Of a stretch of DNA of 35,939 bases, positions 1-34,646 are shown one piece after another. A program made the position numbers and the translations under genes. Position 1 is the stretch's first letter. Each line of letters opens with the position of its first letter. Source of the DNA: a virus (taxonomy: Duplodnaviria; Heunggongvirae; Uroviricota; Caudoviricetes). The stretch lies in the IMG/VR virus record IMGVR_UViG_2627853983_000005; one strand, written 5' to 3'. The notes beneath the pieces are model-generated. The model had not been told where the DNA came from and did not search any database. It saw only the letters and a program-made list of their open reading frames with translations.

Positions 1-2
1 AG

Positions 3-28
3 TTCTCGTAAACCGAGGTTTTAAATAA
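3..28. promoter_or_regulatory. gix/cix/hix-like invertase crossover site (left)
   Basis: TTCTCGTAAACC-GA-GGTTTTAAATAA: two 12-bp inverted half-sites around a 2-bp core, resembling recalled gix; bases 1-19 are the reverse complement of 35921-35939. Confidence 0.6.
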
Positions 29-82
29 TGGCCGTTTCTGGCCTGCATGGCATGATTTGCGCTTTTGGACGGGAGATTCAGT

Positions 83-682
83 GTGCTGATTGGCTATGTA
101 AGGGTATCAACAAATGACCAGAATACAGACCTGCAACGAAACGCTCTTGTTTGTGCAGGATGTGAACAAATATTTGAAGATAAATTAAGCGGGACAAAGA
201 CAGACCGACCGGGATTAAAACGCGCTTTAAAGCGCCTTCAAAAAGGTGACACGCTGGTTGTCTGGAAACTGGATCGCCTCGGGCGAAGCATGAAACATCT
301 GATTTCTCTCGTCGGGGAACTACGGGAGCGAGGGATTAATTTTCGCAGTCTGACCGACAGCATAGACACATCTTCTCCAATGGGGCGTTTTTTCTTCCAC
401 GTGATGGGTGCCCTGGCTGAAATGGAACGTGAATTAATTGTTGAACGTACACTGGCCGGGCTGGCGGCAGCGCGCGCAAGGGGGCGCACAGGCGGACGTC
501 GACCGAAGCTGACAAAAGAACAGCATGAGCAAATAGCAAGGCTAATCAAAAACGGGCACGACAGAAAACAACTGGCAATAATTTACGGCATTGGCACATC
601 GACGATTTATCGTTATCACCCTGTAGGCGATATACAGACTGAAGAAACAACCGGGCAGACTCAGGAAAATGAAAACCGCTAA
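83..682 (+). CDS. Serine DNA invertase, Gin/Pin/Cin/Hin family
   Basis: Translation from GTG at 83 reads MLIGYVRVSTNDQNTDLQRNAL..., with resolvase catalytic Ser motif and C-terminal HTH; closest to recalled e14 Pin. ORF track extends to a TTG at 65. Confidence 0.9.
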   Translation: MLIGYVRVSTNDQNTDLQRNALVCAGCEQIFEDKLSGTKTDRPGLKRALKRLQKGDTLVVWKLDRLGRSMKHLISLVGELRERGINFRSLTDSIDTSSPMGRFFFHVMGALAEMERELIVERTLAGLAAARARGRTGGRRPKLTKEQHEQIARLIKNGHDRKQLAIIYGIGTSTIYRYHPVGDIQTEETTGQTQENENR

Positions 683-703
683 TCTGACCATTAGCGGTTT
701 TTG
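672..703. terminator. Bidirectional rho-independent terminator between convergent invertase and U
   Basis: Perfect 12-bp stem AAAACCGCTAAT / ATTAGCGGTTTT with 6-nt loop, flanked by A/T runs. Confidence 0.6.
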
Positions 704-710
704 TGTTAAA

Positions 711-1205
711 TCAGAACAGCCCTTTAACTGAACTGGCCGCGCTGTTAAGAGATGATGTCACCTTATCTTTGAAGCCGGACAGCATATCACTGAACGATGA
801 GGATTGCAGGCGCTCCCGCAAATCCTCATCACAGCGTTCAAGAGTCAGTGAAAATTCTATCTTTTTCGCCTTACCGTAGCGATCAAACTCGGAGCGGGTC
901 GTATTCGTTTCAGTCAGGACATACATGCCGTAAATCTGCCCGACGCCATCAATCAAAGGCCAGGGTCGTCCTGTATACGCCTGCGTGGTCAGCAGCGACA
1001 GCGACACTTCGCCACCTGTAATTTCAGGATAAAGCACACCAGAAAGAACGATGCGATCATCACCTGCACCGATATACTGCCAGCTTGCTGAACGGTTAAC
1101 GCGTTCATTTTTCACATGCCGCCAGCTTTTGTTTTGCTGTAACTGCTGATGCGGCAGCGTGCGCAGCTCAAAAACAAACATGCCGTAGATCATCATCATG
1201 GCCAT
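711..1205 (-). CDS. U: Tail protein gpU
   Basis: 164 aa, directly downstream of tape measure gene in tail operon; size and position match P2 U. Confidence 0.75.
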   Translation of the reverse strand: MAMMMIYGMFVFELRTLPHQQLQQNKSWRHVKNERVNRSASWQYIGAGDDRIVLSGVLYPEITGGEVSLSLLTTQAYTGRPWPLIDGVGQIYGMYVLTETNTTRSEFDRYGKAKKIEFSLTLERCDEDLRERLQSSSFSDMLSGFKDKVTSSLNSAASSVKGLF

Positions 1206-1211
1206 GACTCC

Positions 1212-4055
1212 TCAATCTTTATCGTAAAAACTGCCACGCCCGGCACGGGCGCGCCGTTCCATTTCTGCCCTGACCATTTCACCGACCAGTTTCGCCAGTT
1301 CGCGGGGATTCTGCGTAACAACGTTATGCAGATGAACATGAATTTCACCACCAAATCCGGAGGCAACAGGCTCCCGGTTACGGGAAGTTACAGGAACTGA
1401 TGCCACTGGAGATCGTATAGCCTCCGCCACCGGGCGGGAGCTGGCCGCAACAACAGGGACCAGCGCCGGAGGCAGCGGAGCCGGGACCACGGGTGTGATA
1501 TTAATTGCGGGGGCAGGCTTACTGACCTGCGCAATCTTCCGCTCCTGCCACTCCCCACGAACAGCAAGTGCTCGGGGCAGGTTTTTAAAGACAATATCGC
1601 CGGGGCCAATGCGTTTTTTCGTCTCCTCAACCAGCTTACCTGTGTTATCAGCAATTTTGCTGAGTCTGCGCAGCGTACCGGTATTGCTGTCTGTGAGCGG
1701 TTTATTGTCTTTGGGGTTATCACCTCCGGTGCCATTGCCATTTTCCACAGGCTTCGGCGGATTGATTTTCGCCAGGTCCCCCTGAAGCAAGGCAACCTTG
1801 TCCTGAAGAATGGCCGCACGCTGTGCGTCTTCGATTTTCTTGCGCGCCCTTTCCGCTTCATCCGGAAGCACACCAAGCTTTTCAAGTATCCACGCCAGCG
1901 TATCCAGCAACATTTTTGCAGGTGTCAGAACAAGTTGTAACGCACCGCCAAGAACGTTACCGAATATCTCGCCAGCACTGGTACATTTATCCAGAGTTTC
2001 CTTGCTGGACTCCATCGGAGACAGCAGCGATTTAAACCAGTTAAACACCTGGCTGATCCCACTCCCGATTGCGTCAAAAACAGGACCAAACCGTTCAAAG
2101 GTTTCGCGCAACGGGGTCAGCCTTTCCATAATCCCGCTGAACACCCCGGCAAAAAATGCCCTGATGGGATCCCAGTATTTCCAGATGAGAACGGCAGCTC
2201 CGGCAAGCGCAGCCACGATAAGGCCGACCGGACTGAACAACGCCCCGATAGCGCCCCCCAGTAACGAAACGGAACCCGTCACCATTCCCCATAGTGCTGG
2301 CAGGAGTCTGACAGCATTCATTGAACCGGTCAGGAGGGAAAAGCCAAGACGCAGTTTTGCCAGCGGGCCAGCAAGCACACCAATAGCCAGCGACAACGAG
2401 CCAACCGTTGCAGTCATTGCCAGCAACGCACCGCCTGCTATCAGTAGCTGGCGCGTCAGTACCGGATGGGCCTGCGCCAGCGAGGTGATTTTTTCAAGCA
2501 CCCGCGTGAGCCACTGCGTGACAGAACGCAGCGGACCGTCAACCAGATCACTGATGCGAATACGAAGACCTTCCCATGCGCTGTCGAGATTTTTCAGGTC
2601 CCCATCAAGATTATCGGCCATTACTTTTGCAACGCGATCGGCCTCTCCCCTTGCCCCCTGCAATTCTCTGGTCAGTTTTTGCAGCTCTCCTGAACCAGCC
2701 GCCGCAACAAGCGTCTGCAAACCAACGAACGCCTCTTCTCCGGCGATGTCCTTGAAGAAGGAAACCTGGTCCACCTGTCCGTATTTTTGTGTCGCCTTAT
2801 AGAGATCAAGCAGCACATCCTCCATCGGGCGCATTTTGCCTCTGGCGTCAGCAACTGACACCCCCAGCTCTTTCAGCGCATCAGCCGCAGCTTTTGGCGG
2901 TGATGCAAGGCGGGACAGACTTGCGCGCATGGCCGTACCAGCATCGCTTCCACGAAGACCATTATTGGCAAGCATCCCGGCCATGGCTGCCGCTTCTTCA
3001 AGACTGATACCAAGTTTTGCGGCAACCGGACCGGTATACTTCATGGTTTCGCCCAGCGCGCGTAAATCAGTATTGGTCCGGGTGAATGCCGCTGTCAGCG
3101 TATCGCCAACCCGGTCCATTTGATCGGCTGTCAGGTTGAACTGTGTGAGGATATTGGAGCCTATATCAGCCGTCTCGCCGAGTTCGACGCCACCTGCCAG
3201 CGCCATATTAAGAACACCGGGCAATGCGGCCTGAATGGCCTGCGGAGTAAAACCAGCCATTGCCAGAAAGCTCTGCCCACTGGCGGCATCACTCGCAGTA
3301 AACTGTGTTTCAGAGCCAAGTTTTAACGCCTGCTCACGCAGCGCCTTAAACTGCGGGCTGTTTTTGTCGATTCGCGTCAGCGCCTGAACGCGGGACATCT
3401 CTTTGCCGAACCCGATCGCGGGCTGCAAAAAACGCCCGGCAGCATAGCCGCCCGCCGCTGCCGCACCAATTGCCAGCGCACCACCTGTTTTCAGTTTTCC
3501 CGCGGTTTCCTGCGCGCGCGAATACCGCTCACGAGCCTGCGTTACACGCGCAAGCGCCTGCCGTTCGCGTTCAAGCTGGTTGTTGTATTGTTCGGTGCGT
3601 CTGATGGCCTGCTGGATGGTGTTATCGCTGCCTGTCAGGGAAATGCCGTGGCGTTTCAGTTCTCCGCCAAGCTCCCGCATTTTCTGAATTTCCCGTGTGC
3701 GCGATTCATTCAGGCGTTCAAGCCGGGTGCTTAACTGCTGCATCAGCTTTTGTTGTTTTTCGCTGAGCACTGTACCCGTGCGTTGTAACTGATTAAGGGC
3801 GTTAAGCTGGCGTCGTGCTTTCACGATACCCGCATCCGCTTTACTGACAGCGTCGCGGGCGCGCTCAAATGAACGCGCCTGACGCTCGAGATTTTTGATC
3901 GCCCCCTGCGTTCGCTGAATGGAGTCACCAAACTGCCCCATCAGGCGGCGGGCGTTTTCGGCAGGCCGGGTCAGCCTGTCAACGGCGCTGAAAGCGACCC
4001 GGATGTCAAGAGTCTTCATTATCTGCATTCCCGCTGCGAAGTGCCGCCCGCTCAC
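1212..4055 (-). CDS. T: Tail tape measure protein gpT
   Basis: 947-aa ORF, coiled-coil N-terminal half, Gly/Ala-rich hydrophobic central segment, follows E/E'. True start may be an internal Met near 4019-4028. Confidence 0.85.
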   Translation of the reverse strand: MSGRHFAAGMQIMKTLDIRVAFSAVDRLTRPAENARRLMGQFGDSIQRTQGAIKNLERQARSFERARDAVSKADAGIVKARRQLNALNQLQRTGTVLSEKQQKLMQQLSTRLERLNESRTREIQKMRELGGELKRHGISLTGSDNTIQQAIRRTEQYNNQLERERQALARVTQARERYSRAQETAGKLKTGGALAIGAAAAGGYAAGRFLQPAIGFGKEMSRVQALTRIDKNSPQFKALREQALKLGSETQFTASDAASGQSFLAMAGFTPQAIQAALPGVLNMALAGGVELGETADIGSNILTQFNLTADQMDRVGDTLTAAFTRTNTDLRALGETMKYTGPVAAKLGISLEEAAAMAGMLANNGLRGSDAGTAMRASLSRLASPPKAAADALKELGVSVADARGKMRPMEDVLLDLYKATQKYGQVDQVSFFKDIAGEEAFVGLQTLVAAAGSGELQKLTRELQGARGEADRVAKVMADNLDGDLKNLDSAWEGLRIRISDLVDGPLRSVTQWLTRVLEKITSLAQAHPVLTRQLLIAGGALLAMTATVGSLSLAIGVLAGPLAKLRLGFSLLTGSMNAVRLLPALWGMVTGSVSLLGGAIGALFSPVGLIVAALAGAAVLIWKYWDPIRAFFAGVFSGIMERLTPLRETFERFGPVFDAIGSGISQVFNWFKSLLSPMESSKETLDKCTSAGEIFGNVLGGALQLVLTPAKMLLDTLAWILEKLGVLPDEAERARKKIEDAQRAAILQDKVALLQGDLAKINPPKPVENGNGTGGDNPKDNKPLTDSNTGTLRRLSKIADNTGKLVEETKKRIGPGDIVFKNLPRALAVRGEWQERKIAQVSKPAPAINITPVVPAPLPPALVPVVAASSRPVAEAIRSPVASVPVTSRNREPVASGFGGEIHVHLHNVVTQNPRELAKLVGEMVRAEMERRARAGRGSFYDKD

Positions 4056-4274
4056 GCCAGCTAACCACTTCGCCGGGCGTCATCATGAAGATTTCGGCGG
4101 GCGACCAGTTGAAAATGGCGGCAATATCCGCCACCAGATCTTCGATGTGCTCAAAGCACACCAGGGTGATTACGCTGCCGTCTCCTGCACGCTCTTCGCG
4201 CCAGAGTCTGGCTCGCTCATAAAATTTACAGCCACAGCGCACAACTGAATAAAATCGCGTGACGACATTTTTTT
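4006..4274 (-). CDS. E' extension reached by programmed -1 frameshift (gpE+E' product)
   Basis: A AAA AAA run at 4268-4274 (minus strand) near E codon 91; the -1 frame is open from there to the stop at 4006. Confidence 0.5.
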
Positions 4275-4544
4275 AATCATCACTTCATCCAGTCGTGGCG
4301 AGGTCACGCGAGGCAACAGCGTGAACATGGTATCCGCTTTCAGATTCAGCACATCAGACAGCGACAGACCACGCAGGGATCCCGCCTGCTCAATAGCCCC
4401 GGTGATCTCCACATATGTGATTTTTTCGGCACCACGCTCAATTGGCCGGGAAAGTTTTACACCACGTTCGACAGCCATATCCTCACCTGACGTCACATCA
4501 TCCGCTACGGTGTTATTCCGGGTTTCAGTATCGATATCTTTCAT
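4170..4544 (-). CDS. E: Tail assembly chaperone gpE
   Basis: ORF starting MKDIDTETRNN between tail tube and tape measure genes; contains A7 slippery run near codon 91. Confidence 0.7.
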   Translation of the reverse strand: MKDIDTETRNNTVADDVTSGEDMAVERGVKLSRPIERGAEKITYVEITGAIEQAGSLRGLSLSDVLNLKADTMFTLLPRVTSPRLDEVMIKKMSSRDFIQLCAVAVNFMSEPDSGAKSVQETAA

Positions 4545-4599
4545 CAGTTGTCTCCTTTTCAGTCAGAGGCGACGCACTGCGCCGCCTGCATATTACTTA

Positions 4600-5112
4600 T
4601 CAGCCAAGCCCAAGCGCGGAACGAATGCGGTCAGGCACAATGTCCTTGCCGTCCTTCCGGTAGATGTGGTTCAACAGGTCGATTTCCCACAGCGGGCGAT
4701 CGTTAACGCTCAGCTTGTAGTAGGTGTTTTTGACAGCGTAAGTGTGTGATGTGGCTTCGCCCTGTTTGGCCTCCCCCATATCAATTTCCGTCACACGCCC
4801 GCGCATCTCGATTTCATACAGATCGCTTTCTGCATCGGTGTAATATTCACCCGCAAAACGCAGCAGCGTGCCGTCAATCGTGCCGCCATACTTAAGGAAC
4901 AGTGCACGAACAGCTCCCCCCATGACAAAGCTCGCATCAAGCGCGGAGTCGTCCAGACCGAGATCAATACTTACTGCTCCCATCATGCCACCACCACGAT
5001 AGCTGTCGGTTTTGCGCGTCAGTTTGGGCGGCGTGACGGATGTCACTTTACCCACTTCGTTTTCACCATCCACAAACAACGTAAAAAAGCGAAGATGTTT
5101 TGGTACAGCCAT
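4600..5112 (-). CDS. FII: Tail tube protein FII
   Basis: 170 aa, immediately downstream of sheath gene; size and position as P2 FII. Confidence 0.85.
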   Translation of the reverse strand: MAVPKHLRFFTLFVDGENEVGKVTSVTPPKLTRKTDSYRGGGMMGAVSIDLGLDDSALDASFVMGGAVRALFLKYGGTIDGTLLRFAGEYYTDAESDLYEIEMRGRVTEIDMGEAKQGEATSHTYAVKNTYYKLSVNDRPLWEIDLLNHIYRKDGKDIVPDRIRSALGLG

Positions 5113-6296
5113 CAGGCACCTCCCAGCACCGCAAATGCGGGACCAAAGAATTCATCAGTAAACGTCTGGTAAAGCTCCATGTCTTCCAGCGGGGGAACGG
5201 GCGTATATTTGTAGCGAATACGCACACGCCCCTGACGTAAATCCGTGGTGCCGTTATCCACCACGTCATACCAGCACTCCGCGCCAATCAGTTTCCCGGC
5301 AGTAACCAGCGAATCCAATTTTGCCCTGATGGCACTGATAACATCCTTCACGTTCGCAGGCGTCAGTGGACTGTCGATGGTTTCAAACTGCGCTTCCGCA
5401 ATTGAATCAGCCAGCACCTGTGCGGTTCGGGTATACACCTCAAAGATGTAGGCGTTCGTTTCCGGTGTGCGGTTGCCCCAGAAGCGGAACCCGTTACGAC
5501 GAATAATGGTCGTGATTTCTTTGTTGTTGAGGCTGTTGGCATCACTGTCTTCGGCCTGTAACGACCAGAACACATGCCTCGACATCCCCAGCACATTTTT
5601 AACCGGAACGTTGGACAGCGATTTGTGCCAGCCCTGCTCATGGTCAATGTACGCACGAAGGCCGCACGCATAAGCAGGCGCGGGGAACGTTTCGTTTTTG
5701 CCACTTTTCGGGTTGTAGGCGATGAAGTCAGGCCATAAGAGCATCACCTCACGTTCGTTGAATTTCTGGCGGTAGGTAATCGCCTCAGCCATCGTGTTAC
5801 AACCATGACATGTGGCATACACAAACGCGCGCAGTTTACCCGCAATCACGCACAGGGATTTTGTCACCGCCTCCGTGTCCAGCTCCGGCGCGGCCAGAAT
5901 ACGCGGACGGTATCCGATGCTTTCATCCTGCTCTGCAACAAGCAGCGCATACATCCCCGTATAGCTGCCGTCAGATTCAGAACCACCGATAACCAGTTGA
6001 TCCTGCGTCCTACCGCCTTCTTCTTTGTGTTCAGCCACGCGAACGACGATCACTTTTGTGCTCACCTGGTCTGCGATAGCCTTAAGCGCACGATAAAGCG
6101 TCCCCGTAGTCCCGCATTTTCCCAGCACGTCATTGACGCGGGTCAGCAGTGTGGGCTTGTTCAGCGGGAACAGCTCCGCATCCGCATCATCCGCCGTTGC
6201 CACGATACCGATAACGCTGGAATCAACATCATTAATCGCTGTTACCAGGTCGGTACTTTCCGTGACACGGGCACCATGAAAACGAGTTTCACTCAT
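5112..6296 (-). CDS. FI: Contractile tail sheath protein FI
   Basis: 394 aa with conserved sheath motifs (KLRAF, AYRQ, EQGWHK, LIRRNGFRFWGNRT, TPVPPLE) recalled from P2 FI. Confidence 0.9.
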   Translation of the reverse strand: MSETRFHGARVTESTDLVTAINDVDSSVIGIVATADDADAELFPLNKPTLLTRVNDVLGKCGTTGTLYRALKAIADQVSTKVIVVRVAEHKEEGGRTQDQLVIGGSESDGSYTGMYALLVAEQDESIGYRPRILAAPELDTEAVTKSLCVIAGKLRAFVYATCHGCNTMAEAITYRQKFNEREVMLLWPDFIAYNPKSGKNETFPAPAYACGLRAYIDHEQGWHKSLSNVPVKNVLGMSRHVFWSLQAEDSDANSLNNKEITTIIRRNGFRFWGNRTPETNAYIFEVYTRTAQVLADSIAEAQFETIDSPLTPANVKDVISAIRAKLDSLVTAGKLIGAECWYDVVDNGTTDLRQGRVRIRYKYTPVPPLEDMELYQTFTDEFFGPAFAVLGGA

Positions 6297-6453
6297 AGCT
6301 TCAGCCCCTTGTATCCGTTAAATGATTCGGCAACAATCATCACCCACCACGCGCGTAATCTCACCCCTGCGCCGTTCTCCCGCCACGGCGACAACAAAAA
6401 GCAGTAACCCCCTCCGCACGCACATGCGACCATGCCGCACAGGGAGGGAGCAG

Positions 6454-7563
6454 ATGACCGACACCACCATGCAATTGCTCAGTCAGGGCACAGACCCCGT
6501 GAAAATGCCGGATTTTGATATTCTCGCGGAGGGTAAAACGCTGTCAGGCGTGGCAGAGCGCCTGATGAGCCTGTCACTGACCGACAACCGGGGATTTGAG
6601 GCGGACCAGCTCACCATCACGCTGGATGATGCGGATGGTCAGTTGCAGCTACCGCCACGGGGCGCGCGCCTGACGGTTCTCATTGGCTGGAAAGGAGAAC
6701 CGCTGACAGAAAAAGGCACTTACATTGTTGATGAAATCGCTCACGAAGGACCGCCGGACAGGCTGACTGTTTCAGCCAGAAGCGCAGATTTTCGGGATGA
6801 ATTTAACGTTAAACGTGAGGTGTCCTGGCATGATGTGACCGTTGAGCGTGTGGTATCCGCCATCGCTCATCGGTATGGTCTGAAACCGCAAATCAGCGAA
6901 ATGCTGATGGATATCGAAATCGACCACGCCGACCAGACCGAAGAAAGCGACATGTCCTTCCTTACGCGCATGGCGGAAATGCTGGGCGCAATCACCACGG
7001 TAAAAAGCGGTAATCTGTTATTCATCATGCCCGGCGGTGGCGTGAACGCACAGGGCCAGCCGTTGCCATCGTTTGCCATCACACGCAGCAGCGGCGATCG
7101 CCATCAGTTCCGCATTGCTGACCGCGAAGCGTATACGGGGGTACGCGCTTACTGGCTTGATCTTAATTACGGGAAAAAGAAAAAAGTCAGCGTGAAACGC
7201 CGTAAACCGCCAAAACCCAAAAAGGAGAAAAGCAGCAGCCGCGAAGGTGATTATATGGAAGGCGCGGAAGGCAATGTGTTTGTGTTACGCAAGACTTATC
7301 AGAACGAGCAGGCAGCAAGACGCGCAGCGGCGGCAAAGTGGCAGCAACTACAACGCGGAGCCGCATCATTCTCCATCACGCTGGCGCGTGGACGTGCAGA
7401 ACTCTACCCCGAAATGCATGGCACGGTAACAGGATTTAAAAGCGAGATTGATAATCAGGACTGGATCATTGCAAAAGCCGAGCACACCATTGATAACAGC
7501 GGTTTTACCACGCAGCTTGAGCTTGAGGCAAAAATCCCGGAATGGATAGCGGAAACAGAGTGA
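6454..7563 (+). CDS. D: Tail/baseplate hub protein gpD (gp27/VgrG-like)
   Basis: ATG at 6454 with GGAGGGAG RBS; 369 aa; immediately upstream of ogr as in P2. ORF track start 6322 lacks an RBS. Confidence 0.85.
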   Translation: MTDTTMQLLSQGTDPVKMPDFDILAEGKTLSGVAERLMSLSLTDNRGFEADQLTITLDDADGQLQLPPRGARLTVLIGWKGEPLTEKGTYIVDEIAHEGPPDRLTVSARSADFRDEFNVKREVSWHDVTVERVVSAIAHRYGLKPQISEMLMDIEIDHADQTEESDMSFLTRMAEMLGAITTVKSGNLLFIMPGGGVNAQGQPLPSFAITRSSGDRHQFRIADREAYTGVRAYWLDLNYGKKKKVSVKRRKPPKPKKEKSSSREGDYMEGAEGNVFVLRKTYQNEQAARRAAAAKWQQLQRGAASFSITLARGRAELYPEMHGTVTGFKSEIDNQDWIIAKAEHTIDNSGFTTQLELEAKIPEWIAETE

Positions 7564-7603
7564 GCAACTTAGAATAGGCAGCACCACGTTAAGGGAGGTC
7601 GCT

Positions 7604-7864
7604 ATGTTCCGTTGTCCGCTTTGTGGCGCATCTGCCCGTATCCGCACCAGTCGTCCGGAAAATGATTCAAACACCGTGCGGCAAAAGTATTACCAGTGTA
7701 ACAATCTGGAATGCGGCGTATGCTTCTCAACACTGGAAGCTTTCCATAAATTCACATCAAAACACGCCTCCGGCGTTCACTCTTCAGAAGGTATCCCGTG
7801 GCATGATCTGCCAGCTTCACACAGGGGAAACAATCAGATGAGTTTGCCTTTATCTCAGAATTAA
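7604..7864 (+). CDS. ogr: Late gene transcriptional activator, Ogr/Delta zinc-finger family
   Basis: MFRCPLCGASARIRTS...YYQCNNLECGVCF: C-x2-C ... C-x4-C zinc finger; position after D as in P2. Confidence 0.85.
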   Translation: MFRCPLCGASARIRTSRPENDSNTVRQKYYQCNNLECGVCFSTLEAFHKFTSKHASGVHSSEGIPWHDLPASHRGNNQMSLPLSQN

Positions 7865-7952
7865 CAGGCAGAATTGCCGGAGTAACAAAAAAGCGATAGA
7901 TTACGTGCGGGTGCCTTTCGGCTGATGGTCGGAGGGAATACCCGAAGGCCAG

Positions 7953-8138
7953 ATGTGGAAAGGCCCCGAGTCAACTTTAACGTTAACCCGAGGCCCTAAC
8001 CATCTACCCTCAGCAAGTGATAGGTTAGCGCCTCCCCGAAAAAGGAGCAAGCGCTATGTCGCAAAAATCGCTTACGGCCATCACATTCTGCGTGACGGCA
8101 ATCCTCATCATCTGGATGCTGCACGGTTCGCTGTGTGA
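7953..8138 (+). CDS. mok-like overlapping reading frame of hok locus (tentative)
   Basis: 61-codon ORF starting upstream of and overlapping hok in another frame, as mok does in hok/sok loci. Confidence 0.3.
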   Translation: MWKGPESTLTLTRGPNHLPSASDRLAPPRKRSKRYVAKIAYGHHILRDGNPHHLDAARFAV

Positions 8139-8196
8139 AATACGGATGAGTTTCTGGGGAGCGGAGTTTGCGGCGTTCTTACAGTGTAAGCAGTAA
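8056..8196 (+). CDS. hok: Hok/Gef-family type I toxin (small membrane peptide)
   Basis: 46 aa MSQKSLTAITFCVTAILIIWMLHGSLCEIRMSFWGAEFAAFLQCKQ: N-terminal TM helix, SLCEIR and AAF motifs of Hok/Gef; AAGGAG RBS 8 nt upstream; below ORF-track size cut-off. Confidence 0.75.
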   Translation: MSQKSLTAITFCVTAILIIWMLHGSLCEIRMSFWGAEFAAFLQCKQ

Positions 8197-8289
8197 GGAA
8201 ACCGCGACGGGGAAGGCAACTTCCCCGTCAATCGGTTGCCAGGGTAAAGGTCGAAAAGGCACCCTATTTCCAGTTGACGTGAACAACAA

Positions 8290-8322
8290 GCCCGCAGCGT
8301 AAAAACTGCGGGTTTTCTTTTT
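8290..8322 (+). terminator. Rho-independent terminator ending hok/ogr transcript
   Basis: Stem GCCCGCAG/CTGCGGGT with 8-nt loop followed by TTTCTTTTT. Confidence 0.6.
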
Positions 8323-8356
8323 GGTTCCCTCACTCATGAGGACACCAAAAAACAAA

Positions 8357-8385
8357 GCCCACAGCATAGAAGCTGTGGGCTTTTT
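8357..8385. terminator. Second hairpin terminator, bidirectional
   Basis: 9-bp stem GCCCACAGC/GCTGTGGGC followed by TTTTT; A-run on the other side. Confidence 0.55.
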
Positions 8386-8395
8386 GCATTCAAAG

Positions 8396-8590
8396 ATGGA
8401 CGTTATATGGACACTTAAAAATAAAATCCATTTATTTTCAAATGATTAAACCTCTACTTAAAGCGCCCGCAGGCGCTTTAACGTTTCTTGCCCCTCCTGA
8501 TGATTTACTTATTTTTCAACGAATAAGCCAAAACAGGGGGAACAAATTAACACAAATTATAACTAATCGATGGACAGTTTATGGACACTT
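8396..8590. other. Putative attP region with Int arm-type direct repeats
   Basis: ATGGACGTTATATGGACACTT (8396-8416) and ATGGACAGTTTATGGACACTT (8570-8590) flank an AT-rich stretch and a GCGCC hairpin (8460-8479); lies at int 3' end where P2 attP sits. Confidence 0.4.
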
Positions 8591-9570
8591 TCAGCCAGCG
8601 GATTAAAGTTGATCGCGTCCAGTAAAAAGTCCGGCGAAAAATGAGCGTACGTCATTGTTTGCTGAATCGTTGCGTGCCCCAGGATTCGTTGCAACGTAAC
8701 AATATTTCCGCCATTCATCATAAAGTGTGTGGCAAATGTATGACGCATGACATGCGTAGCCTGCCCCTTCGGCAAATCCGGTTTCACCTCCTGAAGAATC
8801 TCCCGGAACTTCAGATAATCAACCTGATACAATAACCCCGTTCGACGGGTTTTAATCAGAGGCACGACCGAATCCGCCACAGGAACCGAACGGGATTTTC
8901 CGTTTTTGGTGTTAAAGAACGTCACCCGGTTGCCAACGATATGCTCTCCACGTAGTTCCGATGCTTCACTCCATCGGGCACCAGTAGAAAGACACAGAAT
9001 GGCAACACGACGCACATCACCCTCCAGTCGCTCAAGAAGCCGTTCAATCTCATCATCAGAAAGAAAGGCCATCTCTGTGTTCTGAACTTTCAGTTTTCGT
9101 ATACCGCGTACAGGGTTCGCGTTGTGAAAGACCTCAGCTTCAATCAGCACCGTGAACATGGTAGACAGTACGCATAAGTCACGATTAATACTGGACGGCA
9201 TTAATCCGGCCTGTAATTTCTCTGACCGATATTCAAGCATAAATTTTCGCGTCATCTGACTGGCGCGAGGATCTCCCATTTCACGAACAACCTTCCCTAG
9301 CCTAACCCTGTAGCTATCCCCGTAAGCCTGATTACGCCCATCAAGCATCCACCACGCATCAAGCAGCTCTGATAATCGCCGCTGATCAGCTGGCTTAGCC
9401 TGCCATGGCTTGTCATGAAAGTTCTGTAACACATACTTCTCAAACTCCTGAGCCTTTGATTTCAGGGCAAAGATTTTTCGAATCCGCTTTCCTTCCGCCC
9501 CCTGCGGTCTGACATCGACCTGATAACGTCCGTCTTTGAGTTGCTTAATCGACATGATTAGCCCCTCCAA
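8563..9570 (-). CDS. int: Tyrosine integrase, P2-type
   Basis: 335 aa with C-terminal catalytic region (...ATHVMRHTFATHF...LGHATIQQTMTYAH); adjacent to C repressor as in P2. Confidence 0.9.
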   Translation of the reverse strand: MEGLIMSIKQLKDGRYQVDVRPQGAEGKRIRKIFALKSKAQEFEKYVLQNFHDKPWQAKPADQRRLSELLDAWWMLDGRNQAYGDSYRVRLGKVVREMGDPRASQMTRKFMLEYRSEKLQAGLMPSSINRDLCVLSTMFTVLIEAEVFHNANPVRGIRKLKVQNTEMAFLSDDEIERLLERLEGDVRRVAILCLSTGARWSEASELRGEHIVGNRVTFFNTKNGKSRSVPVADSVVPLIKTRRTGLLYQVDYLKFREILQEVKPDLPKGQATHVMRHTFATHFMMNGGNIVTLQRILGHATIQQTMTYAHFSPDFLLDAINFNPLAESVHKLSID

Positions 9571-9624
9571 CGGATAAATTAACTAAACACTCCTTGCGAT
9601 ATGTAATTCGCTCAATGTGTAGAG

Positions 9625-9966
9625 TCAGCCAACATTGCGGCCTGATCGGGGTGATTTTTGGGTAATACCGATTGAAACCTGATCGCCCTCCGACTGAATA
9701 GATCCATCAAGAGAGAGAGCCGGAGCAATCTGCCCGGCGACAGGTAGCGTCTTATCTTTTATTAGCCACAGCATGTATTTTTCAAAGCGATCGACTTGCA
9801 GAACCGCCTCAACGATTTTTGCTCTAGCGTTCTTTTGCCCCGATTCGTAATTCCTTATGGTTGCCAAAGACAACCCAGTAATATCCGCAAACTGCTTTTG
9901 TGTTAACCCTTCCGCCTTACGTATCTGACGTAACTTTTTTGCGTAGTCTATTGACAAGATAACCAT
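9625..9966 (-). CDS. C: Immunity repressor C (HTH)
   Basis: HTH ...LTQKQFADITGLSLATIRNYESGQ and QIAPAL motif resembling recalled P2 C; start taken at ATG 9966 (ORF track uses TTG at 10020). Confidence 0.8.
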   Translation of the reverse strand: MVILSIDYAKKLRQIRKAEGLTQKQFADITGLSLATIRNYESGQKNARAKIVEAVLQVDRFEKYMLWLIKDKTLPVAGQIAPALSLDGSIQSEGDQVSIGITQKSPRSGRNVG

Positions 9967-9987
9967 TTGAGTATTAACCTCTCGCAC

Positions 9988-10011
9988 AAAGATAACCTTT
10001 TGGTTATCTTT
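9988..10011. promoter_or_regulatory. Operator-like palindrome in C/cox promoter region
   Basis: AAAGATAACC-TTTT-GGTTATCTTT perfect 10-bp inverted repeat 22 bp upstream of C start. Confidence 0.5.
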
Positions 10012-10070
10012 ACAAGCCAAAACAAACCATCACAAGGCGCGACAAGCGCACCAACGCAAGAGGATAACAA

Positions 10071-10592
10071 ATGCGGGACTTCATTGCCGATAAAGAGTTA
10101 TCTGACCACCAACCACTTCAGGAAAGTGACGCACTCAGCGGATCCATTGATGCCGCCAACGACGACGAGCACGAAGAAAACAAGAAAAAGCGTTCCTACA
10201 AAAAAGGAGCGACTTTGCGGCTGGATGGTCCGATCGCCGGGCTTTGCTCTCTGGAAAAAGGCGCGGCATATATTGGGCTAACAAAATCTGCACTGCGCGT
10301 AGCCATTCATCGCGGTCAAATGCCGGGACACAAGACGCGCACAAACCCGGAAGATGAAAACTCAGACGGAGTATGGTGGTTTAACGCCAAAGAGTGGGAC
10401 AAGTTGGCTGATGAGCTACCAGAGCACGAGCCCCCAGAATGGCACAACTGGAAAAGTTACTGGACGTATGACCGCCAGAAAAGGAAGTTCTCTCCAGCTA
10501 ATAAAGAAGACTGCCAGACCATTAACGGTAAGCGAGTTTATACAGGCAGAAGCTCAAAACTGGACCAACTCAGAAACAACAGAGGCAACTAA
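10071..10592 (+). CDS. Cox/Apl-like early regulator, putative excisionase
   Basis: First gene of rightward early operon, facing C; central HTH-like segment AAYIGLTKSALRVAIHRGQMPG; acidic N-terminus. Alternative TTG start at 10215 with AAGGAG RBS. Confidence 0.5.
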   Translation: MRDFIADKELSDHQPLQESDALSGSIDAANDDEHEENKKKRSYKKGATLRLDGPIAGLCSLEKGAAYIGLTKSALRVAIHRGQMPGHKTRTNPEDENSDGVWWFNAKEWDKLADELPEHEPPEWHNWKSYWTYDRQKRKFSPANKEDCQTINGKRVYTGRSSKLDQLRNNRGN

Positions 10593-10596
10593 TCGT

Positions 10597-11019
10597 ATGA
10601 AAACAAACACGTCAGATTTCACAATAACTATTTCAAAAAATGACCAAGCATTAATTGATAACCTGAAATACCTTGCGGAAAAACATAATAACGGACGAAT
10701 TGCAATTAATTTACGACACATCACAGGAGTAACAATTGTAACCAGTTACTGGCATCTATATCTAATCGCTAAATCAGTACTTGAAAACAAAGATTCTGTT
10801 GTCAATGGAAGAGATATAGATACTCTTCCTGCACAAATCAAACCGATAGCCTATCAATTGCGTAATCGTTTTAAAAATGAAGGTGGGATTATATTTGACT
10901 TTCCCGCAGCTGTAGCCGTGAGCTTCTCTCGGGGGGATATACTTCACTCATTTCGTTTTGCTCTATCAGGTGACGAGACATTATGGCAGCTAGAAGATGC
11001 CGGGAGCAGCCCGGCATAA
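10597..11019 (+). CDS. Hypothetical protein in AT-rich island
   Basis: ATG 10597 with AGAGG RBS; 141 aa; sharp drop in GC relative to flanks. Confidence 0.55.
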   Translation: MKTNTSDFTITISKNDQALIDNLKYLAEKHNNGRIAINLRHITGVTIVTSYWHLYLIAKSVLENKDSVVNGRDIDTLPAQIKPIAYQLRNRFKNEGGIIFDFPAAVAVSFSRGDILHSFRFALSGDETLWQLEDAGSSPA

Positions 11020-11025
11020 ATCAAA

Positions 11026-11217
11026 TTAAAAATCAACCAGTTGTGTGACAGGTGGGTATTTACGCTGAATTTTGTCAGTTACTAACGCCAGTAATATATG
11101 AATCTCTGTGTTTAATGCGTCTTTATCACCCGTCGTTTTTACCCTGGGAGGGTTAATGTTATCCAGAGCAGCACTAAGTTCACTCAACAAATTAACAACT
11201 TTTTTATCTTCTGACAT
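11026..11217 (-). CDS. Hypothetical small protein (63 aa), antisense to early operon
   Basis: AAGAGG RBS 6 nt upstream of ATG; convergent with previous gene; AT-rich. Confidence 0.5.
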   Translation of the reverse strand: MSEDKKVVNLLSELSAALDNINPPRVKTTGDKDALNTEIHILLALVTDKIQRKYPPVTQLVDF

Positions 11218-11354
11218 GAAAACCTCTTAACAATTTAATTAAACATAAGCCAGGACCTGAACCGGCCAGTCCAAGTCCTAGACACACAAAAAAAATACCA
11301 CAAATCAATACAAGGTGACACGAGTACACCTTACCGAAGGTACAGAGTTTTAAT

Positions 11355-11705
11355 ATGAAACTACAGCGCAATTCTTCACAGCAGCGCTTCCGCAACGGTG
11401 CGGAACGCCATGCTAACCGTTTCGCTACCAGTGCATCACGTAGCAACTCTCGCTACAGCCTGAGCGAAACACACGCAACGCCGGATGGCTACCCAGTAAA
11501 ACAAATTGGTGAACACACTTGGCTGATTGAAAAAGCAGGAATCGTGGTTCACAGATGCCAGCGCAACCCATTTACCGGAAACCGCATTTTTGCACTGAGC
11601 AACGGCGACAATCAGTTCGGGCAGGATTTCACATTATACGAAGCACTTCGCACGGTTGATCGTCTGCTTCACGGGCAAAGTTTTATTAAACAGGCTGATT
11701 TATAA
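11355..11705 (+). CDS. Hypothetical early protein
   Basis: 116-aa ORF in early operon. Confidence 0.6.
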   Translation: MKLQRNSSQQRFRNGAERHANRFATSASRSNSRYSLSETHATPDGYPVKQIGEHTWLIEKAGIVVHRCQRNPFTGNRIFALSNGDNQFGQDFTLYEALRTVDRLLHGQSFIKQADL

Positions 11706-11715
11706 CAGGTGCTTT

Positions 11716-11994
11716 ATGACCAAAGAGCATGCACAAGGTGTATTTATCCGTTTTATTGATTTTCGCGGTGAACTGTTATTACGCGCATCAGCCATTGACG
11801 GAGTTGTTCCATCCGAAAAAAATGCAGCTACTTACGTTTATCTGAACGGCACGCGCCTGACCGTAGAACTTCCGTACCAGACTGTACACGAAATCATTAG
11901 CGAAGCGGAAAAAGCACGTAAGACTAATGGCGATGAACCCTATATCGAAATTATTTGTATGGATTCAGAAGCAGAAATTCAGAAAGCAGATTAA
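11716..11994 (+). CDS. Hypothetical early protein
   Basis: ATG 11716 with AGGTG RBS, in frame with ORF 11656-11994. Confidence 0.55.
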   Translation: MTKEHAQGVFIRFIDFRGELLLRASAIDGVVPSEKNAATYVYLNGTRLTVELPYQTVHEIISEAEKARKTNGDEPYIEIICMDSEAEIQKAD

Positions 11995-12005
11995 AGGGCG
12001 TTGCG

Positions 12006-12248
12006 ATGGGCAAAGAATATAAAACTCTCATTAACAAAGCACTTGAGCGTTTTTATTTTCGCTTAAGTGCATCAGGCGCTCATGCTGAACGTGCAGCCCG
12101 TGACTCATTGACCAGGGCAATCCGGAGTCTGTATGACGTGGCTTTTTACGCTGATGATCTGGATGCACTTAACGAACTTTCCGAGCTGATCTGTGCCGCA
12201 GAATGCGGGGAACATATTGAACCGTATAAGCTGGGGAATATCGCATGA
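12006..12248 (+). CDS. Hypothetical early protein
   Basis: ATG 12006 with AAGGG RBS; stop overlaps next start (ATGA). Confidence 0.55.
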   Translation: MGKEYKTLINKALERFYFRLSASGAHAERAARDSLTRAIRSLYDVAFYADDLDALNELSELICAAECGEHIEPYKLGNIA

Positions 12249-12358
12249 GTATATTTATGTCATGGATTGTTCTGATTATTTCAGTGGTCTGCGCAATTGG
12301 CATTGTGCGAATTATTCATTCAGTAAAAAAGATTGAACGTTTTTTCACTGGTGAATAA
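12245..12358 (+). CDS. Possible small single-TM peptide (37 aa)
   Basis: MSIFMSWIVLIISVVCAIGIVRIIHSVKKIERFFTGE; start overlaps previous stop (ATGA coupling). Confidence 0.3.
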   Translation: MSIFMSWIVLIISVVCAIGIVRIIHSVKKIERFFTGE

Positions 12359-12451
12359 CGATACAAATAAAACATCAAATTAAATAAGAAAACGTGAAAA
12401 CCATCCGTATTAACGGAGGTATTCGCACACGCAAATAACGGAGATACAAAA

Positions 12452-12862
12452 ATGCACGCAAAAGAAGAAGGTATCATCAGAGCACTGAAAGAAATTTCAA
12501 AGACAGAAAACGAAGTAGCGAAAAAAGCCATAGCAAATAATCATATGGACGTCGCAACCCACACACTGATAGTCGCAAGAGTCACGGCAGAAGCAGCCGA
12601 AATTATCGCAAAACAGGATGCTGAACTGGCGGTTCTCAGAACACAACCAGTCACCGGACTGGATTTGTCTAACACCGGACGCCTTATTTACACAATTGGC
12701 TCGGAGCTACAGCGATACACCATTATCGCCGGGTTACAGGATAAATACCTGATCACTCCTCACCCCATAAGGGAATCAGAAATTCTGACAAATCTCCGCC
12801 TGATAGAGCGCTCTCAAGTCGCATTCATTGATGACGCACAGTGCACCGTATTTAACGCATAG
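12452..12862 (+). CDS. Hypothetical early protein
   Basis: 136-aa ORF with AGGT/GGAG-type RBS upstream. Confidence 0.6.
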   Translation: MHAKEEGIIRALKEISKTENEVAKKAIANNHMDVATHTLIVARVTAEAAEIIAKQDAELAVLRTQPVTGLDLSNTGRLIYTIGSELQRYTIIAGLQDKYLITPHPIRESEILTNLRLIERSQVAFIDDAQCTVFNA

Positions 12863-12885
12863 AGTTACTGGACAAAGGGGGCGCA

Positions 12886-13089
12886 ATGGCAATTAAGCAT
12901 TTTCCCGTCGTTCGCTTTACCTCCAGAGGGCGCGAATACGAGGTCGACGAACGCCTGATTACCACTATCGACAAACATCGTTCGGAAAAGGATGCACACC
13001 ACATCTACCTCACTGACGGCACTTACTTCTGCGCCACTAATGTGGCGCGGGTAAACCTTATCCGACAGGTACAGGAGCCACGCAGATGA
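12886..13089 (+). CDS. Hypothetical early protein
   Basis: 67-aa ORF; stop overlaps next start. Confidence 0.5.
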   Translation: MAIKHFPVVRFTSRGREYEVDERLITTIDKHRSEKDAHHIYLTDGTYFCATNVARVNLIRQVQEPRR

Positions 13090-13352
13090 CCATTCTGGAC
13101 TACATCGCTACTCATCCGGGGTGTAGCGGCGGAGAGATCGCCGCAGCACTGAATACTCCAACCACAGCCATTAATGCTGAGTTACGCCAACTTTGGCGCG
13201 GCGGCTTAGTCATCAGAACAAACCGCAGCACAGGTGGTCGCGCTCGCAAAACTGGAGGCCAGGCTTCTTACCACGTAAACCCGATGCCGTTCGGGTGTAG
13301 CAATCCACTTACTCACATGTTTAACCAGCTACTGAAGGAAGCCAGAACATGA
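13086..13352 (+). CDS. Hypothetical early protein, possible winged-helix
   Basis: 88-aa ORF translationally coupled to neighbours. Confidence 0.55.
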   Translation: MTILDYIATHPGCSGGEIAAALNTPTTAINAELRQLWRGGLVIRTNRSTGGRARKTGGQASYHVNPMPFGCSNPLTHMFNQLLKEART

Positions 13353-13648
13353 GCACCATCAACCACCAGAAGCTACGCGAACTGGCATTTGCCCTGCAAC
13401 GAATGGCAACACCTCAAAAATTACTGGCATTTCGCGCAATGCTCTCGCCGTCTGCTGCGCTGGCATTGCTGGATGAGCTGGAGCACGCCAGAACCACGGC
13501 TCCTGCCATTCGCCTGACGCTCCATCATGAAATCGCTGATTTCTGCGCGACATTGGAGGTGCCAGGCGAACCGGAAACGCCGGAAGCAATACAGCAAGAG
13601 CTGCTGCAACGTATTGACAAGGTTTTTGATTTTTTTCTGAACCAGTAA
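13349..13648 (+). CDS. Hypothetical early protein
   Basis: 99-aa ORF translationally coupled (ATGA overlap). Confidence 0.55.
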   Translation: MSTINHQKLRELAFALQRMATPQKLLAFRAMLSPSAALALLDELEHARTTAPAIRLTLHHEIADFCATLEVPGEPETPEAIQQELLQRIDKVFDFFLNQ

Positions 13649-13970
13649 GAAACCAGAGCATGCACACACAAAAAAACCGCTTGCCATGCCGCAATCAGTC
13701 AGGTTACATTTCCGCTGCACCTCATAAAACGGGTGCCGGGTTTCGCAGCCTGCTGACTACACAAGCGCACAACCGCGCCAGCGGTTTTTTTGTGCGTACT
13801 GTATTGCCACGTTTTTTTCGCGTCAGAATTATGGCGGGGCGTACGGGGCCGACTTCGGTCGGGCCGGGTTCTTGTGTAGCCGGTACTGCGAACCTCGTAC
13901 GTCTCGCCACCCACAGTTTCGCAGCTCTGGATGGTGAGTTTTCACAACTTACTACACAAGGGGCCACACC

Positions 13971-14201
13971 ATGGCAAACCGCAAACAGCACCGCGCTATC
14001 GCGGAGCGTCGTCACATCCAGACTGAAATCAACCGCAGACTTTCCCGCGCATCACGCGTCGCGCAAATCATGCACATCAATATGCTGCATGAGCGCAGCC
14101 ACGCACTATCAAACATTTATTCCGCCTCTGTTTTCAGCTATCTGGCGGATGATCTGCACGAGCTTCAACAGCTCATCCAGCAGCAAAACAAACTCCATTA
14201 A
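13971..14201 (+). CDS. Hypothetical small basic protein
   Basis: 76-aa ORF with AAGGGG RBS after a structured non-coding stretch. Confidence 0.45.
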   Translation: MANRKQHRAIAERRHIQTEINRRLSRASRVAQIMHINMLHERSHALSNIYSASVFSYLADDLHELQQLIQQQNKLH

Positions 14202-14273
14202 TTCCTGTTCCGGGCCTTTCCTGCACCTTGCGGCGGGAGGCCTTCGCACATCTGTAACAAGAGGATTGCCGCA

Positions 14274-14639
14274 ATGATTCTCGCCAACGACTTTCTTGAA
14301 TACCTGCTCAATACAGAACGTGATCTTGCCGCTCGCGTGCGTGATCGTTATGACATGTACCTGAAATCCCTGCCTGTACCGCAGCTCGCTGACGGAAAGA
14401 TTGTTATTGATGGTCGCTACATGATTGACAGCCACGAGGGAAATTACAGGCTTTACCGCATTGAAGGTGGCACCCCGTCCGTTATTGGCATTTACCAGCG
14501 CCCATCCTCTGCAATCGTCGATGTGATTGCCGACAGCATCCGCATCACACATCGCCATGCCGACACAGAAGACACCGTGCTGGAAATTCAGCGGCTGGCT
14601 ACAGTCTGCCGCGACACCCTGAATGGCATGACGAAGTAA
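14274..14639 (+). CDS. Hypothetical early protein upstream of A
   Basis: 121-aa ORF with AAGAGGA RBS. Confidence 0.55.
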   Translation: MILANDFLEYLLNTERDLAARVRDRYDMYLKSLPVPQLADGKIVIDGRYMIDSHEGNYRLYRIEGGTPSVIGIYQRPSSAIVDVIADSIRITHRHADTEDTVLEIQRLATVCRDTLNGMTK

Positions 14640-17544: not shown

Positions 17545-18504
17545 ATGAAAATTTGTATCGACGACGGCTCCACCAACATCAAGCTGGCATGGACTGAGAA
17601 TGGCGAACGCCGCAACGCCATCAGCCCGAACAGCTTCAAGTCGGAATGGTCTGCGCCGTTCGGTGGCATGCAGCCCGCGAACTACATGCTTGATGGCGTG
17701 CGCTATGGTTTTGATCCGGTTAGCGATCGCTTTGTCCAGACGACCGACACGCAATACCAGTACAGCGATGTGAATGTAATCGCCATTCATCACGCGCTGG
17801 TCAAATCAGGCATCACGCCACAGGAGGTGGATGTGGTTGTCACCCTGCCACTGAGCGAGTATTTCGACACAAACGCACAGCCGGACATGGCCAACATCAA
17901 CCGCAAAAAAGCGAACGTTATGCGCCCGGTGGAATACCAGAACGGCGAAGCATTCACTATCCGTAACGTGCGGGTTATGCCTGAATCCATTCCGGCTGGC
18001 TTTAAAGCACTGGCTGACATGAGTCCGTTTGAATCCCTGCTGATTGTGGATTTAGGCGGAACCACGCTGGATGTGGCAAAGGTTCAAGGGCAACTGGCAG
18101 GTATCAGCCAGGTGTTTTGCGATCCACACGTAGGCGTTTCCCTGATGGCCGATGCCGTACTGTCGGTGATGGCCACTAACGGTATGCGCACCAGTCACCA
18201 CATCGCCAATACCATTATCGAACATCGCCATGATGAAGCCTGGCTGCGCCAGCACATCCACAATGACGCGCATTACGCCAGCCTGATGGCGGTTATTCGT
18301 GAAAAGGAAGAAACACTGAAACAACGCGTGATCCGCGCGCTGGCGGTTTTTTCGGGTTACGGGCGGGTGATGGTTGTCGGTGGAGGGGCGGAGATTGTGG
18401 CACCCGCTATCCGCGAAGTCTGCGGAGTTAATGCGACTTTCATCGCGGACGGGGTGCCACAGTTTGCTCTGGTTAATGGGCTGTACGCAATGGACAAGGA
18501 GTAA
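17545..18504 (+). CDS. parM: Actin-like segregation ATPase, ParM/StbA family
   Basis: N-terminus MKICIDDGSTNIKLAW...ISPNSFKSEW...YQYSDVNVIAIHHAL matches recalled R1 ParM/StbA phosphate-binding motifs; 319 aa. Confidence 0.9.
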   Translation: MKICIDDGSTNIKLAWTENGERRNAISPNSFKSEWSAPFGGMQPANYMLDGVRYGFDPVSDRFVQTTDTQYQYSDVNVIAIHHALVKSGITPQEVDVVVTLPLSEYFDTNAQPDMANINRKKANVMRPVEYQNGEAFTIRNVRVMPESIPAGFKALADMSPFESLLIVDLGGTTLDVAKVQGQLAGISQVFCDPHVGVSLMADAVLSVMATNGMRTSHHIANTIIEHRHDEAWLRQHIHNDAHYASLMAVIREKEETLKQRVIRALAVFSGYGRVMVVGGGAEIVAPAIREVCGVNATFIADGVPQFALVNGLYAMDKE

Positions 18505-18508
18505 ACCA

Positions 18509-18823
18509 ATGACGACACCAACCAGACGGATAAGTTTCTATCTGAAGCCCGCCGCCGTCAAGAGTGAACAGGAGGCGTGCAATTACCTCGATAGCCTGCC
18601 AGCCTCCGAACGCAGCCGCGCGCAACGCGCGGCCTTTCTGGCTGGGCTAGCGCTCATAAAGCGCAACCCAGCATTTGCCTACTGGATGGCCGAATGGCCA
18701 GAGGACAACCTCCCCTTCAATACCGTTAGCATCAAGGAAACATACCAGGATAATCAGCCTAGCGGAGTTGAATGCAATTTTTATAAAATAAAAAAGAATA
18801 TTCAGACCTTATTCCCAGAATAA
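18509..18823 (+). CDS. parR: ParR/StbB-like centromere-binding adaptor
   Basis: AAGGAG RBS; RRISFYLKP...LDSLPASERSRAQRAAFLAGLALIK resembles recalled R1 ParR ribbon-helix-helix N-terminus; directly downstream of parM. Confidence 0.8.
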   Translation: MTTPTRRISFYLKPAAVKSEQEACNYLDSLPASERSRAQRAAFLAGLALIKRNPAFAYWMAEWPEDNLPFNTVSIKETYQDNQPSGVECNFYKIKKNIQTLFPE

Positions 18824-29162: not shown

Positions 29163-29304
29163 CCCACCCACATGGGGAAACCTCGGAATATGGGGCGACC
29201 GCCTTCTGGATGCACTGGAAACCTGTAACGCGGATAAACGGGCCATTGCTGAACTGGATAAGAGAATAGCCGAACTGACACACCAGACGGGAGTAACACA
29301 ATGA
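29023..29304 (+). CDS. o-spanin lipoprotein (Rz1/LysC-like)
   Basis: Lipobox LLTGC after signal peptide; Pro-rich; embedded in +1 frame of i-spanin. Confidence 0.6.
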   Translation: MNAPTLCLTLVLLTGCAGTQNAPGPAPSVRLIPQTLTMPVTPPPFPDPPTWGNLGIWGDRLLDALETCNADKRAIAELDKRIAELTHQTGVTQ

Positions 29305-34645: not shown

Positions 34646-34646
34646 G

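Follow-up and report, generated by a model that had tools for sequence, protein, structure and literature searches.

Small serine invertases of about 190 aa acting on two inverted 26-bp sites (for the definition of these recombination sites, see PMC3798978 and PMC4134206) are known from Cin/cix of P1, Pin/pix of e14, Hin/hix of Salmonella, and Min of p15B. Cin, Pin, and Min switch the C-termini of tail fibres, whereas Hin flips a promoter and not a coding segment. The systems of the Din family have a Fis-dependent enhancer in the invertase gene, an element of about 60 bp with two Fis sites that is situated in the 5' coding region, about 100 bp away from the nearer crossover site; PMC3798978 and PMC2724282 place the recombinational enhancer inside this gene in Mu and Hin, the former citing Kahmann et al. 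(1985) on this point. In the G segment of Mu, the constant N-terminal part of the fibre gene is followed by a site, a variable C-terminus with its assembly gene, the mirror pair of these two, and the second site, beyond which the gin gene begins.

The closest described case is that of prophage Phi1 of Escherichia coli EC958, in which Forde et al. (2014, PLoS One, PMC4134206) reported a 2,773-bp invertible tail-fibre segment bounded by the sites TTATCGAATACCTC GGTTTACGAGAA and TTATTTAAAACCTC GGTTTACGAGAA (their Table 3). About 50% of the EC958 PacBio reads were found in each orientation of the segment, and according to these authors mixed orientations yield spurious or broken contigs (PMC4134206). 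Inversions in the P2-like prophages of EPEC strains have been shown experimentally (Goldberg et al., 2014, PMC4272514). The related phage P88, the attP site of which was reported as GCCACCCGAAGGTG, was described in a paper that makes no mention of inversion (PMC5285337).

The DNA analyzed here is a stretch of 35,939 nucleotides from a tailed phage (IMG/VR record IMGVR_UViG_2627853983_000005), referred to below as the window. It is almost certain that the window is the circular map of the excised Phi1, broken off at its Gin-type invertible tail-fibre segment, and none of the results contradicts this reading. The crossover sites, the invertase, and the H gene are the same as in Phi1 of EC958, and the element is the same; in EC958 it is integrated between serS and dmsA and its segment is assembled, whereas the window is an attP permutation from which the segment is missing. 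The switch itself is therefore the one already published for the ST131 strain EC958, and its mechanism adds nothing new. The positions of the main features are given in Table 1.

Table 1. Positions of the features discussed in the text (window coordinates)
Feature	Position	Strand	Description
Terminal inverted repeat, left arm	1..19	.	Outermost 19 nt of a repeat extending beyond the window
Left crossover site, gixR-like	3..28	+	TTCTCGTAAACC GA GGTTTTAAATAA; core dinucleotide 15-16
Serine DNA invertase gene, Gin orthologue	83..682	+	199 aa, GTG start
Candidate recombinational enhancer (sis-like)	101..170	.	Proposed from DNA identity to Mu gin
attP core	8460..8479	.	AAAGCGCCCGCAGGCGCTTT; 20-bp overlap of the two JJ1886 prophage arms
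Tyrosine integrase gene, adjoins attP	8563..9555	-	Pfam Int_N and Phage_integrase; integrase in the JJ1886 annotation
Tail-fibre gene H, constant N-terminal part	34648..35939	+	430 codons, open at the window end
Right crossover site, gixL-like, inside H	35912..35937	+	TTATCGAATACC TC GGTTTACGAGAA; core 35924-35925
Terminal inverted repeat, right arm	35921..35939	.	Exact reverse complement of 1-19

The window shows 99.99-100% identity, in circularly permuted form, with the prophages of JJ1886 and EC958 and with a plasmid-borne copy described below, and the flanks of the segment in EC958 match it at 2996/3000 and 1433/1433 positions. Its identity with P88, P88_4B11, 520873, and Citrobacter phiSM amounts to 93-97% at the DNA level over the tail and head genes. 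The gene order read in the annotation of the identical JJ1886 sequence is that of the P2 type (Q P O N M L ... lysis ... V W J I H ... FI FII E T U D ogr, followed by att and then int C cox ... A). On the strength of these identities, the window is assigned to a P88-like Xuanwuvirus (P2 family, Peduoviridae), prophage Phi1 of E. coli ST131. No match to P2 cos was found in the window, either with a 19-mer at up to 3 mismatches or with the 400-bp P2 cos region by blastn. The arrangement H - cassette - invertase is common to members of Xuanwuvirus: in the P88-like records, the two ends of the window map 2.7-3.0 kb apart, with the cassette between them and the invertase gene directly after it. P88 and the other members of Xuanwuvirus differ from the window phage in their att site and in the variable H C-termini, and the inner half-sites of the P88-like phages differ slightly from those of the window (CAGGAA versus CGAGAA).

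The integrated prophage of JJ1886 is located between serS and dmsA and matches the window in two blocks, namely 1-8479 at 100% and 8460-35939 at 99.993% identity. The 20-bp core in which these two blocks overlap is present at both prophage junctions; it forms a near-perfect hairpin identical to the stem-loop of the intrinsic terminator of the host serS gene. The empty attB, as rebuilt from the host flanks, is this same terminator: it occurs at 100% identity in other E. coli strains and is uninterrupted in 5,077 of the 5,426 E. coli genomes. Since the two prophage arms overlap in the core and the empty attB exists, the window carries attP, and by this comparison it represents the Phi1 prophage in an excised and circularly permuted state. 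The proposal made previously that the element is not integrated at this att thus holds, attP being present in the window and neither attL nor attR. As a side observation, integration rebuilds the serS terminator hairpin at both prophage junctions.

Whether the source was free phage DNA or an ordinary lysogen, in which two prophages in tandem, or a minor fraction of excised circles that the assembler chanced to follow, would have supplied the attP junction, bears on how this junction came to be sequenced. Phi1 is integrated in hundreds of complete E. coli genomes: when the ogr-int region was used as a query, hundreds of matches at 100% were obtained, all of them breaking at 8460. None of the viral, metagenome, and species-representative genome contig collections contained an exact copy of the 51-bp attP junction, a result that favors a lysogenic source and also fits the idea that free phage DNA of this type is rarely sequenced. 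However, the simultaneous presence of attL, attR, and attP would be expected to branch the assembly graph at the 20-bp core and to stop the contigs there, whereas the window runs straight through the att core and contains no host DNA anywhere. Because the contig crosses the core unbranched and without any host DNA, a lysogenic source is possible but rather unlikely.

In the plasmid collection, the attP junction was detected once, in the IncC plasmid pC-Ec2-KPC (NZ_MK439959.1). This plasmid carries, contiguously and at 100% identity, window 34564-35939, a segment of 2,718 bp, and window 1-12217 through attP; the segment is flipped, so that H encodes 740 aa. Behind this stretch come IS26 and then window 34571 to 12210, inverted and flanked by additional IS26 copies (the loci examined are L019, NZ_MK439959.1 46014-87214, and L020, 36000-46500). 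The two 8-bp overlaps, CATTCAGG (34564-34571) and GAACATAT (12210-12217), are target duplications of IS26; the plasmid therefore holds the complete phage circle of 38,657 bp (the window plus the segment), which three copies of IS26 have opened and in part inverted. As read from these junctions, the plasmid shows that an excised phage circle was captured by IS26 into a KPC resistance plasmid; no description of this capture was found in the literature searched. It means that attP circles can take part in recombination in clinical strains. The possibility that the window itself was derived from pC-Ec2-KPC was considered and rejected, since the window shows no interruption at either of the points where IS26 inserted (12217 and 34564).

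The earlier note had also stated that the replicon closes into a circle. The circular topology is borne out by the contiguous stretch in pC-Ec2-KPC, but the term replicon goes further than the sequence data, which would fit virion DNA, replicative circles, and excised circles alike. Downstream of the replication endonuclease gene A, the JJ1886 annotation places a ParM plasmid-segregation ATPase gene (17545-18504, +) and a partitioning/stability gene (18509-18823, +), a pair which is an unusual cargo for an integrating phage of the P2 type; a gene for a toxin of the Hok/Gef family is located at about 8056-8196 (+), between ogr and attP, at the extremity of the prophage adjoining serS. Because the phage carries this ParM/ParR-like pair (17545-18823) and the hok/gef gene, Phi1 might have been abundant as a free circle in the source sample and might persist as a plasmid-like episome, although we regard this as improbable.

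The two ends of the window lie where the complete genomes have the invertible segment. The first 19 nucleotides, AGTTCTCGTAAACCGAGGT, are the exact reverse complement of the last 19, and the 20th base differs; the probability that an exact match of this length would fall right at the two ends by chance is about 4^-19 (4e-12). Each end carries a 26-bp site composed of two 12-bp half-sites around a 2-bp core, and the two sites are mutually inverted. The inner half-site and the core are common to both sites, the outer half-sites having 3 mismatches in 12 positions. When the 35.9-kb window was scanned with a degenerate gix-type pattern (TTN5AWACCNNGGTWTN5AA), the only matches were these two terminal sites, and none was obtained in 100 shuffles. 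The left site differs from Mu gixR at 4 of 26 positions, with an identical GA core, and the right site from Mu gixL at 4 of 26, again with an identical core. The right site is the published Phi1_5prime and the reverse complement of the left site is Phi1_3prime (PMC4134206, Table 3); in EC958 coordinates, the left site occupies 958322-958347 and the right site 961070-961095, as published. The reading frame of H crosses the right site and is still open at the last base of the window. Three points proposed from the letters alone, that is, the exact inverted match at the termini with a differing 20th base, the gix-type sites with one half-site in common, and an H frame running through the right site, were thus recovered on recomputation.

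The 19 nucleotides are only the outer tip of a repeat which, in the complete genomes, runs on into the segment. In JJ1886 and EC958, the arms are exact over 70 bp and near-exact over about 130 bp, and the full imperfect repeat extends over about 480-510 bp at 77% identity, decaying into paralogous coding sequence (see also PMC4134206, Table 3). This deep reach of the inverted repeat, with 70 exact bp in an imperfect repeat of about 500 bp, distinguishes the element from Mu. The two also differ in the length of the constant part of the fibre, which comprises 430 codons of a P2-type H in the window and about 170 codons of S in Mu, and in their lifestyle, Mu being a transposable phage and the window phage a P2-type cos phage. 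The order of the parts of the G segment is nevertheless the same in both, and in both elements the invertase gene lies about 55-70 bp beyond the second site.

In the window, the invertase gene starts with a GTG located 55 nt past the last base of the left site and preceded by a GGGAGA ribosome-binding site, and this start agrees with the annotation of P88. The product consists of an N-terminal resolvase catalytic domain (Resolvase, PF00239, 1.4e-50) and a C-terminal DNA-binding domain (HTH_7, PF02796, 4e-13), and the closest solved structures are those of Gin (4m6f and 3uj3, E about 1e-100). It is identical to Mu Gin at 154/181 positions (85%), with 129/134 identical residues in the catalytic domain and only 25/47 in the DNA-binding domain. 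The other relatives were a phage-borne Fin (74% identical), a Yersinia phage protein named hin (56%), and PinL of phi80 (50%). By these comparisons, the enzyme is an orthologue of Gin, nearer to Gin than to the other members of the family; the earlier note was right about its position 55 bp inside the left site and about its family, but the gene it had called Pin-like is a Gin orthologue.

The residues reported to be important for the activity and regulation of these enzymes are present. Serine 9 is the catalytic residue of Gin and mutation of M114 in the E-helix relieves the Fis dependence (PMC3575834); both S9 and M114 are conserved in a gap-free alignment with Mu Gin. In Hin, Q151, R154, and L155 together with a basic patch on helix B contact Fis and the enhancer, and these contact residues are conserved among invertases and not in resolvases (PMC3798978). 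The DNA-binding domain of the window enzyme contains the motif E-Q-I-A-R-L, which corresponds to the Fis-contact motif Q-x-x-R-L, and its helix-B basic patch, TDRPGLKRALKRLQKG, is identical to that of Gin.

At the DNA level, window 83-322 is identical to the 5' part of Mu gin at 234 of 240 positions (97.5%). Because these first 240 nt are nearly identical to the region of Mu gin in which the enhancer resides, they very probably retain the Mu enhancer, the coordinates 104-167 being candidate ones only. Two candidate Fis-like 15-mers, 104-118 and 153-167, have their centers 49 bp apart, although the motif is degenerate, and the first of them lies about 95 bp from the left core. When the beginning of the gene was scanned with the Fis motif, several pairs of 15-mers at a spacing of 44-52 bp were obtained, the motif being too degenerate to be used alone. 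Past the first 240 nt, the identity with Mu gin decreases to about 89% over 323-442 and to about 55% beyond about 440, in the part encoding the DNA-binding domain. This mosaic pattern suggests a recent exchange of the part carrying the catalytic domain and the enhancer between phages of the Mu type and of the P2 type.

The constant part of H encodes a Phage_tail_fib domain and three Phage_fiber_2 repeats (Pfam). As a minor point, these repeats are encoded in the window at 35172-35516 by three tandem units of about 130 bp which are about 86% identical. The DNA linking the end of the window to its start amounts to 2,718 bp in EC958 and 2,728 bp in JJ1886, where the missing portion corresponds exactly to positions 11815-14542 of the locus analyzed (L004). 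It contains, in this order, Hv (the H C-terminus), tfa (its assembly gene), and then in inverted orientation tfa' and Hv', i.e., a second assembly gene and a second H C-terminus; this cassette, which is located outside the window, was examined in JJ1886, EC958, P88, 520873, and other assemblies. The way the segment is turned decides whether the completed H has 661 aa or 740 aa; in both cases, H is followed by its own assembly gene.

Compared with EC958, the segment of JJ1886 contains 10 additional gap bases distributed over 5 places; these are probably sequencing errors, and its assembly gene appears to be frameshifted because of them. The idea that this frameshift in the second assembly gene is a real defect of one orientation was rejected, since the gene is intact (175 aa) in EC958 and in most of the assemblies.

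The orientation of the segment was determined using two 1,100-bp junction queries, each composed of the constant part of H and one of the two ends of the segment. Both queries gave full-length matches at 100% identity, in different sister ST131 chromosomes. The first orientation occurs, for example, in JJ1886, JJ1887, and EC958, and the other one in JJ2434, MNCRE44, 4/4, and O25b:H4; full coverage was obtained in 166 genomes for the first junction type and in 213 for the second. The DNA joining the two ends had been predicted to be an invertible cassette with alternative H C-termini and assembly genes, present in two orientations: the cassette was found in the complete genomes, and both orientations are seen at 100% identity in sister ST131 chromosomes and in the PacBio reads (PMC4134206).

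Based on its orthology to Gin, the inversion can be pictured as follows. Dimers of the invertase would bind the two inverted 26-bp sites, and Fis bound to the enhancer in the 5' part of the invertase gene would presumably activate the reaction. The enzyme would then cut at the central GA/TC dinucleotide, rotate the strands, and flip the segment of about 2.7 kb. The dependence on Fis and the enhancer, the dependence on supercoiling, and the phosphoserine intermediate would likewise follow those of Gin. The flip would fuse the 430 constant codons of H to one of the two receptor-binding C-termini (661 or 740 aa for the complete protein) and place the matching assembly gene downstream of H, which would switch the host range.

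It might be argued that the segment flips by homologous recombination across the imperfect repeat of about 500 bp and not by means of the invertase. The repeat is long enough for this reading to be considered (70 bp exact, about 480 bp at 77%), and an exchange between the arms does occur: in the copy carried by pC-Ec2-KPC (L019 9384-12101), the arms are 95% alike over 475 bp, versus 76.5% in EC958, a homogenization which indicates gene conversion or homologous exchange between them, as far as can be judged from the two copies. However, the invertase is intact, with all its catalytic and regulatory residues; the 26-bp sites are canonical and have identical cores; and a mixture of about 50:50 orientations in one culture (PMC4134206) is typical of switching by an invertase. 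In addition, in the flipped ST131 genomes the first mismatch between the arms, at repeat position 80, moves with the segment, whereas each flank keeps its own outer half-site, so that the crossovers must have taken place inside the 70 exact bp containing the 26-bp site. Flipping by homologous recombination is thus very unlikely, and inversion by the Gin orthologue is the reading retained here.

The terminal inverted repeat of the window is most likely due to a break of the assembly inside the repeat of the switch. The ends look like terminal repeats because the contig stops inside the repeat and carries its first bases at both ends. The assembler would have stopped 19 nt into each arm since the sites lie in a long inverted repeat and both orientations would be present in the culture: the path through the segment becomes ambiguous when the repeat exceeds the word of the assembler or the population holds both orientations. 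The presence of the segment in the source sample is suggested by the genomes that are 99.99-100% identical to the window. The retained 19 nt do not correspond to any obvious standard k-mer overlap; a k of about 19-20 would be required, which is plausible for some assemblers.

Exact inverted repeats are also found at true physical ends, such as those of protein-primed phages and transposons, and when tools check the completeness of a genome, inverted repeats of about this length at the termini are commonly taken for its ends. That the 19-bp repeats, placed as they are precisely at both ends of the window, are the true termini of a linear genome or a transposable element can be dismissed. Joined copies exist: the 2.7-kb segment links the two ends, with flanks at 100%, in pC-Ec2-KPC, in JJ1886 and EC958, and in about ten other assemblies. 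Moreover, the frame of H is cut in the middle of the gene at the right end, the repeat extends past the ends of the window in every complete copy, and the genes present (terminase, portal, rolling-circle replication endonuclease) are those of a P2-type cos phage.

The element is a textbook host-range switch, and the main value of the case is as a caution for calls of genome completeness. An exact inverted repeat at the ends of a phage contig does not necessarily denote a linear genome with terminal repeats, and a contig that seems to be complete may lack, as is the case here, the 2.7 kb encoding the receptor-binding tips of the tail fibre, which are the part most relevant to the prediction of the host range. 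Gix-type sites at the ends of contigs can serve as a flag for recognizing and closing such contigs.

One further open reading frame differs among the relatives of Phi1. This ORF, at 29301-31178 (+), encodes 625 aa with a SASA domain (sialate O-acetylesterase-like, PF03629) and a DUF6645 domain. It is absent from several otherwise collinear relatives (L007, L009, L010, and L012, for example), and in the window it is inserted between the lysis genes and the tail gene R.
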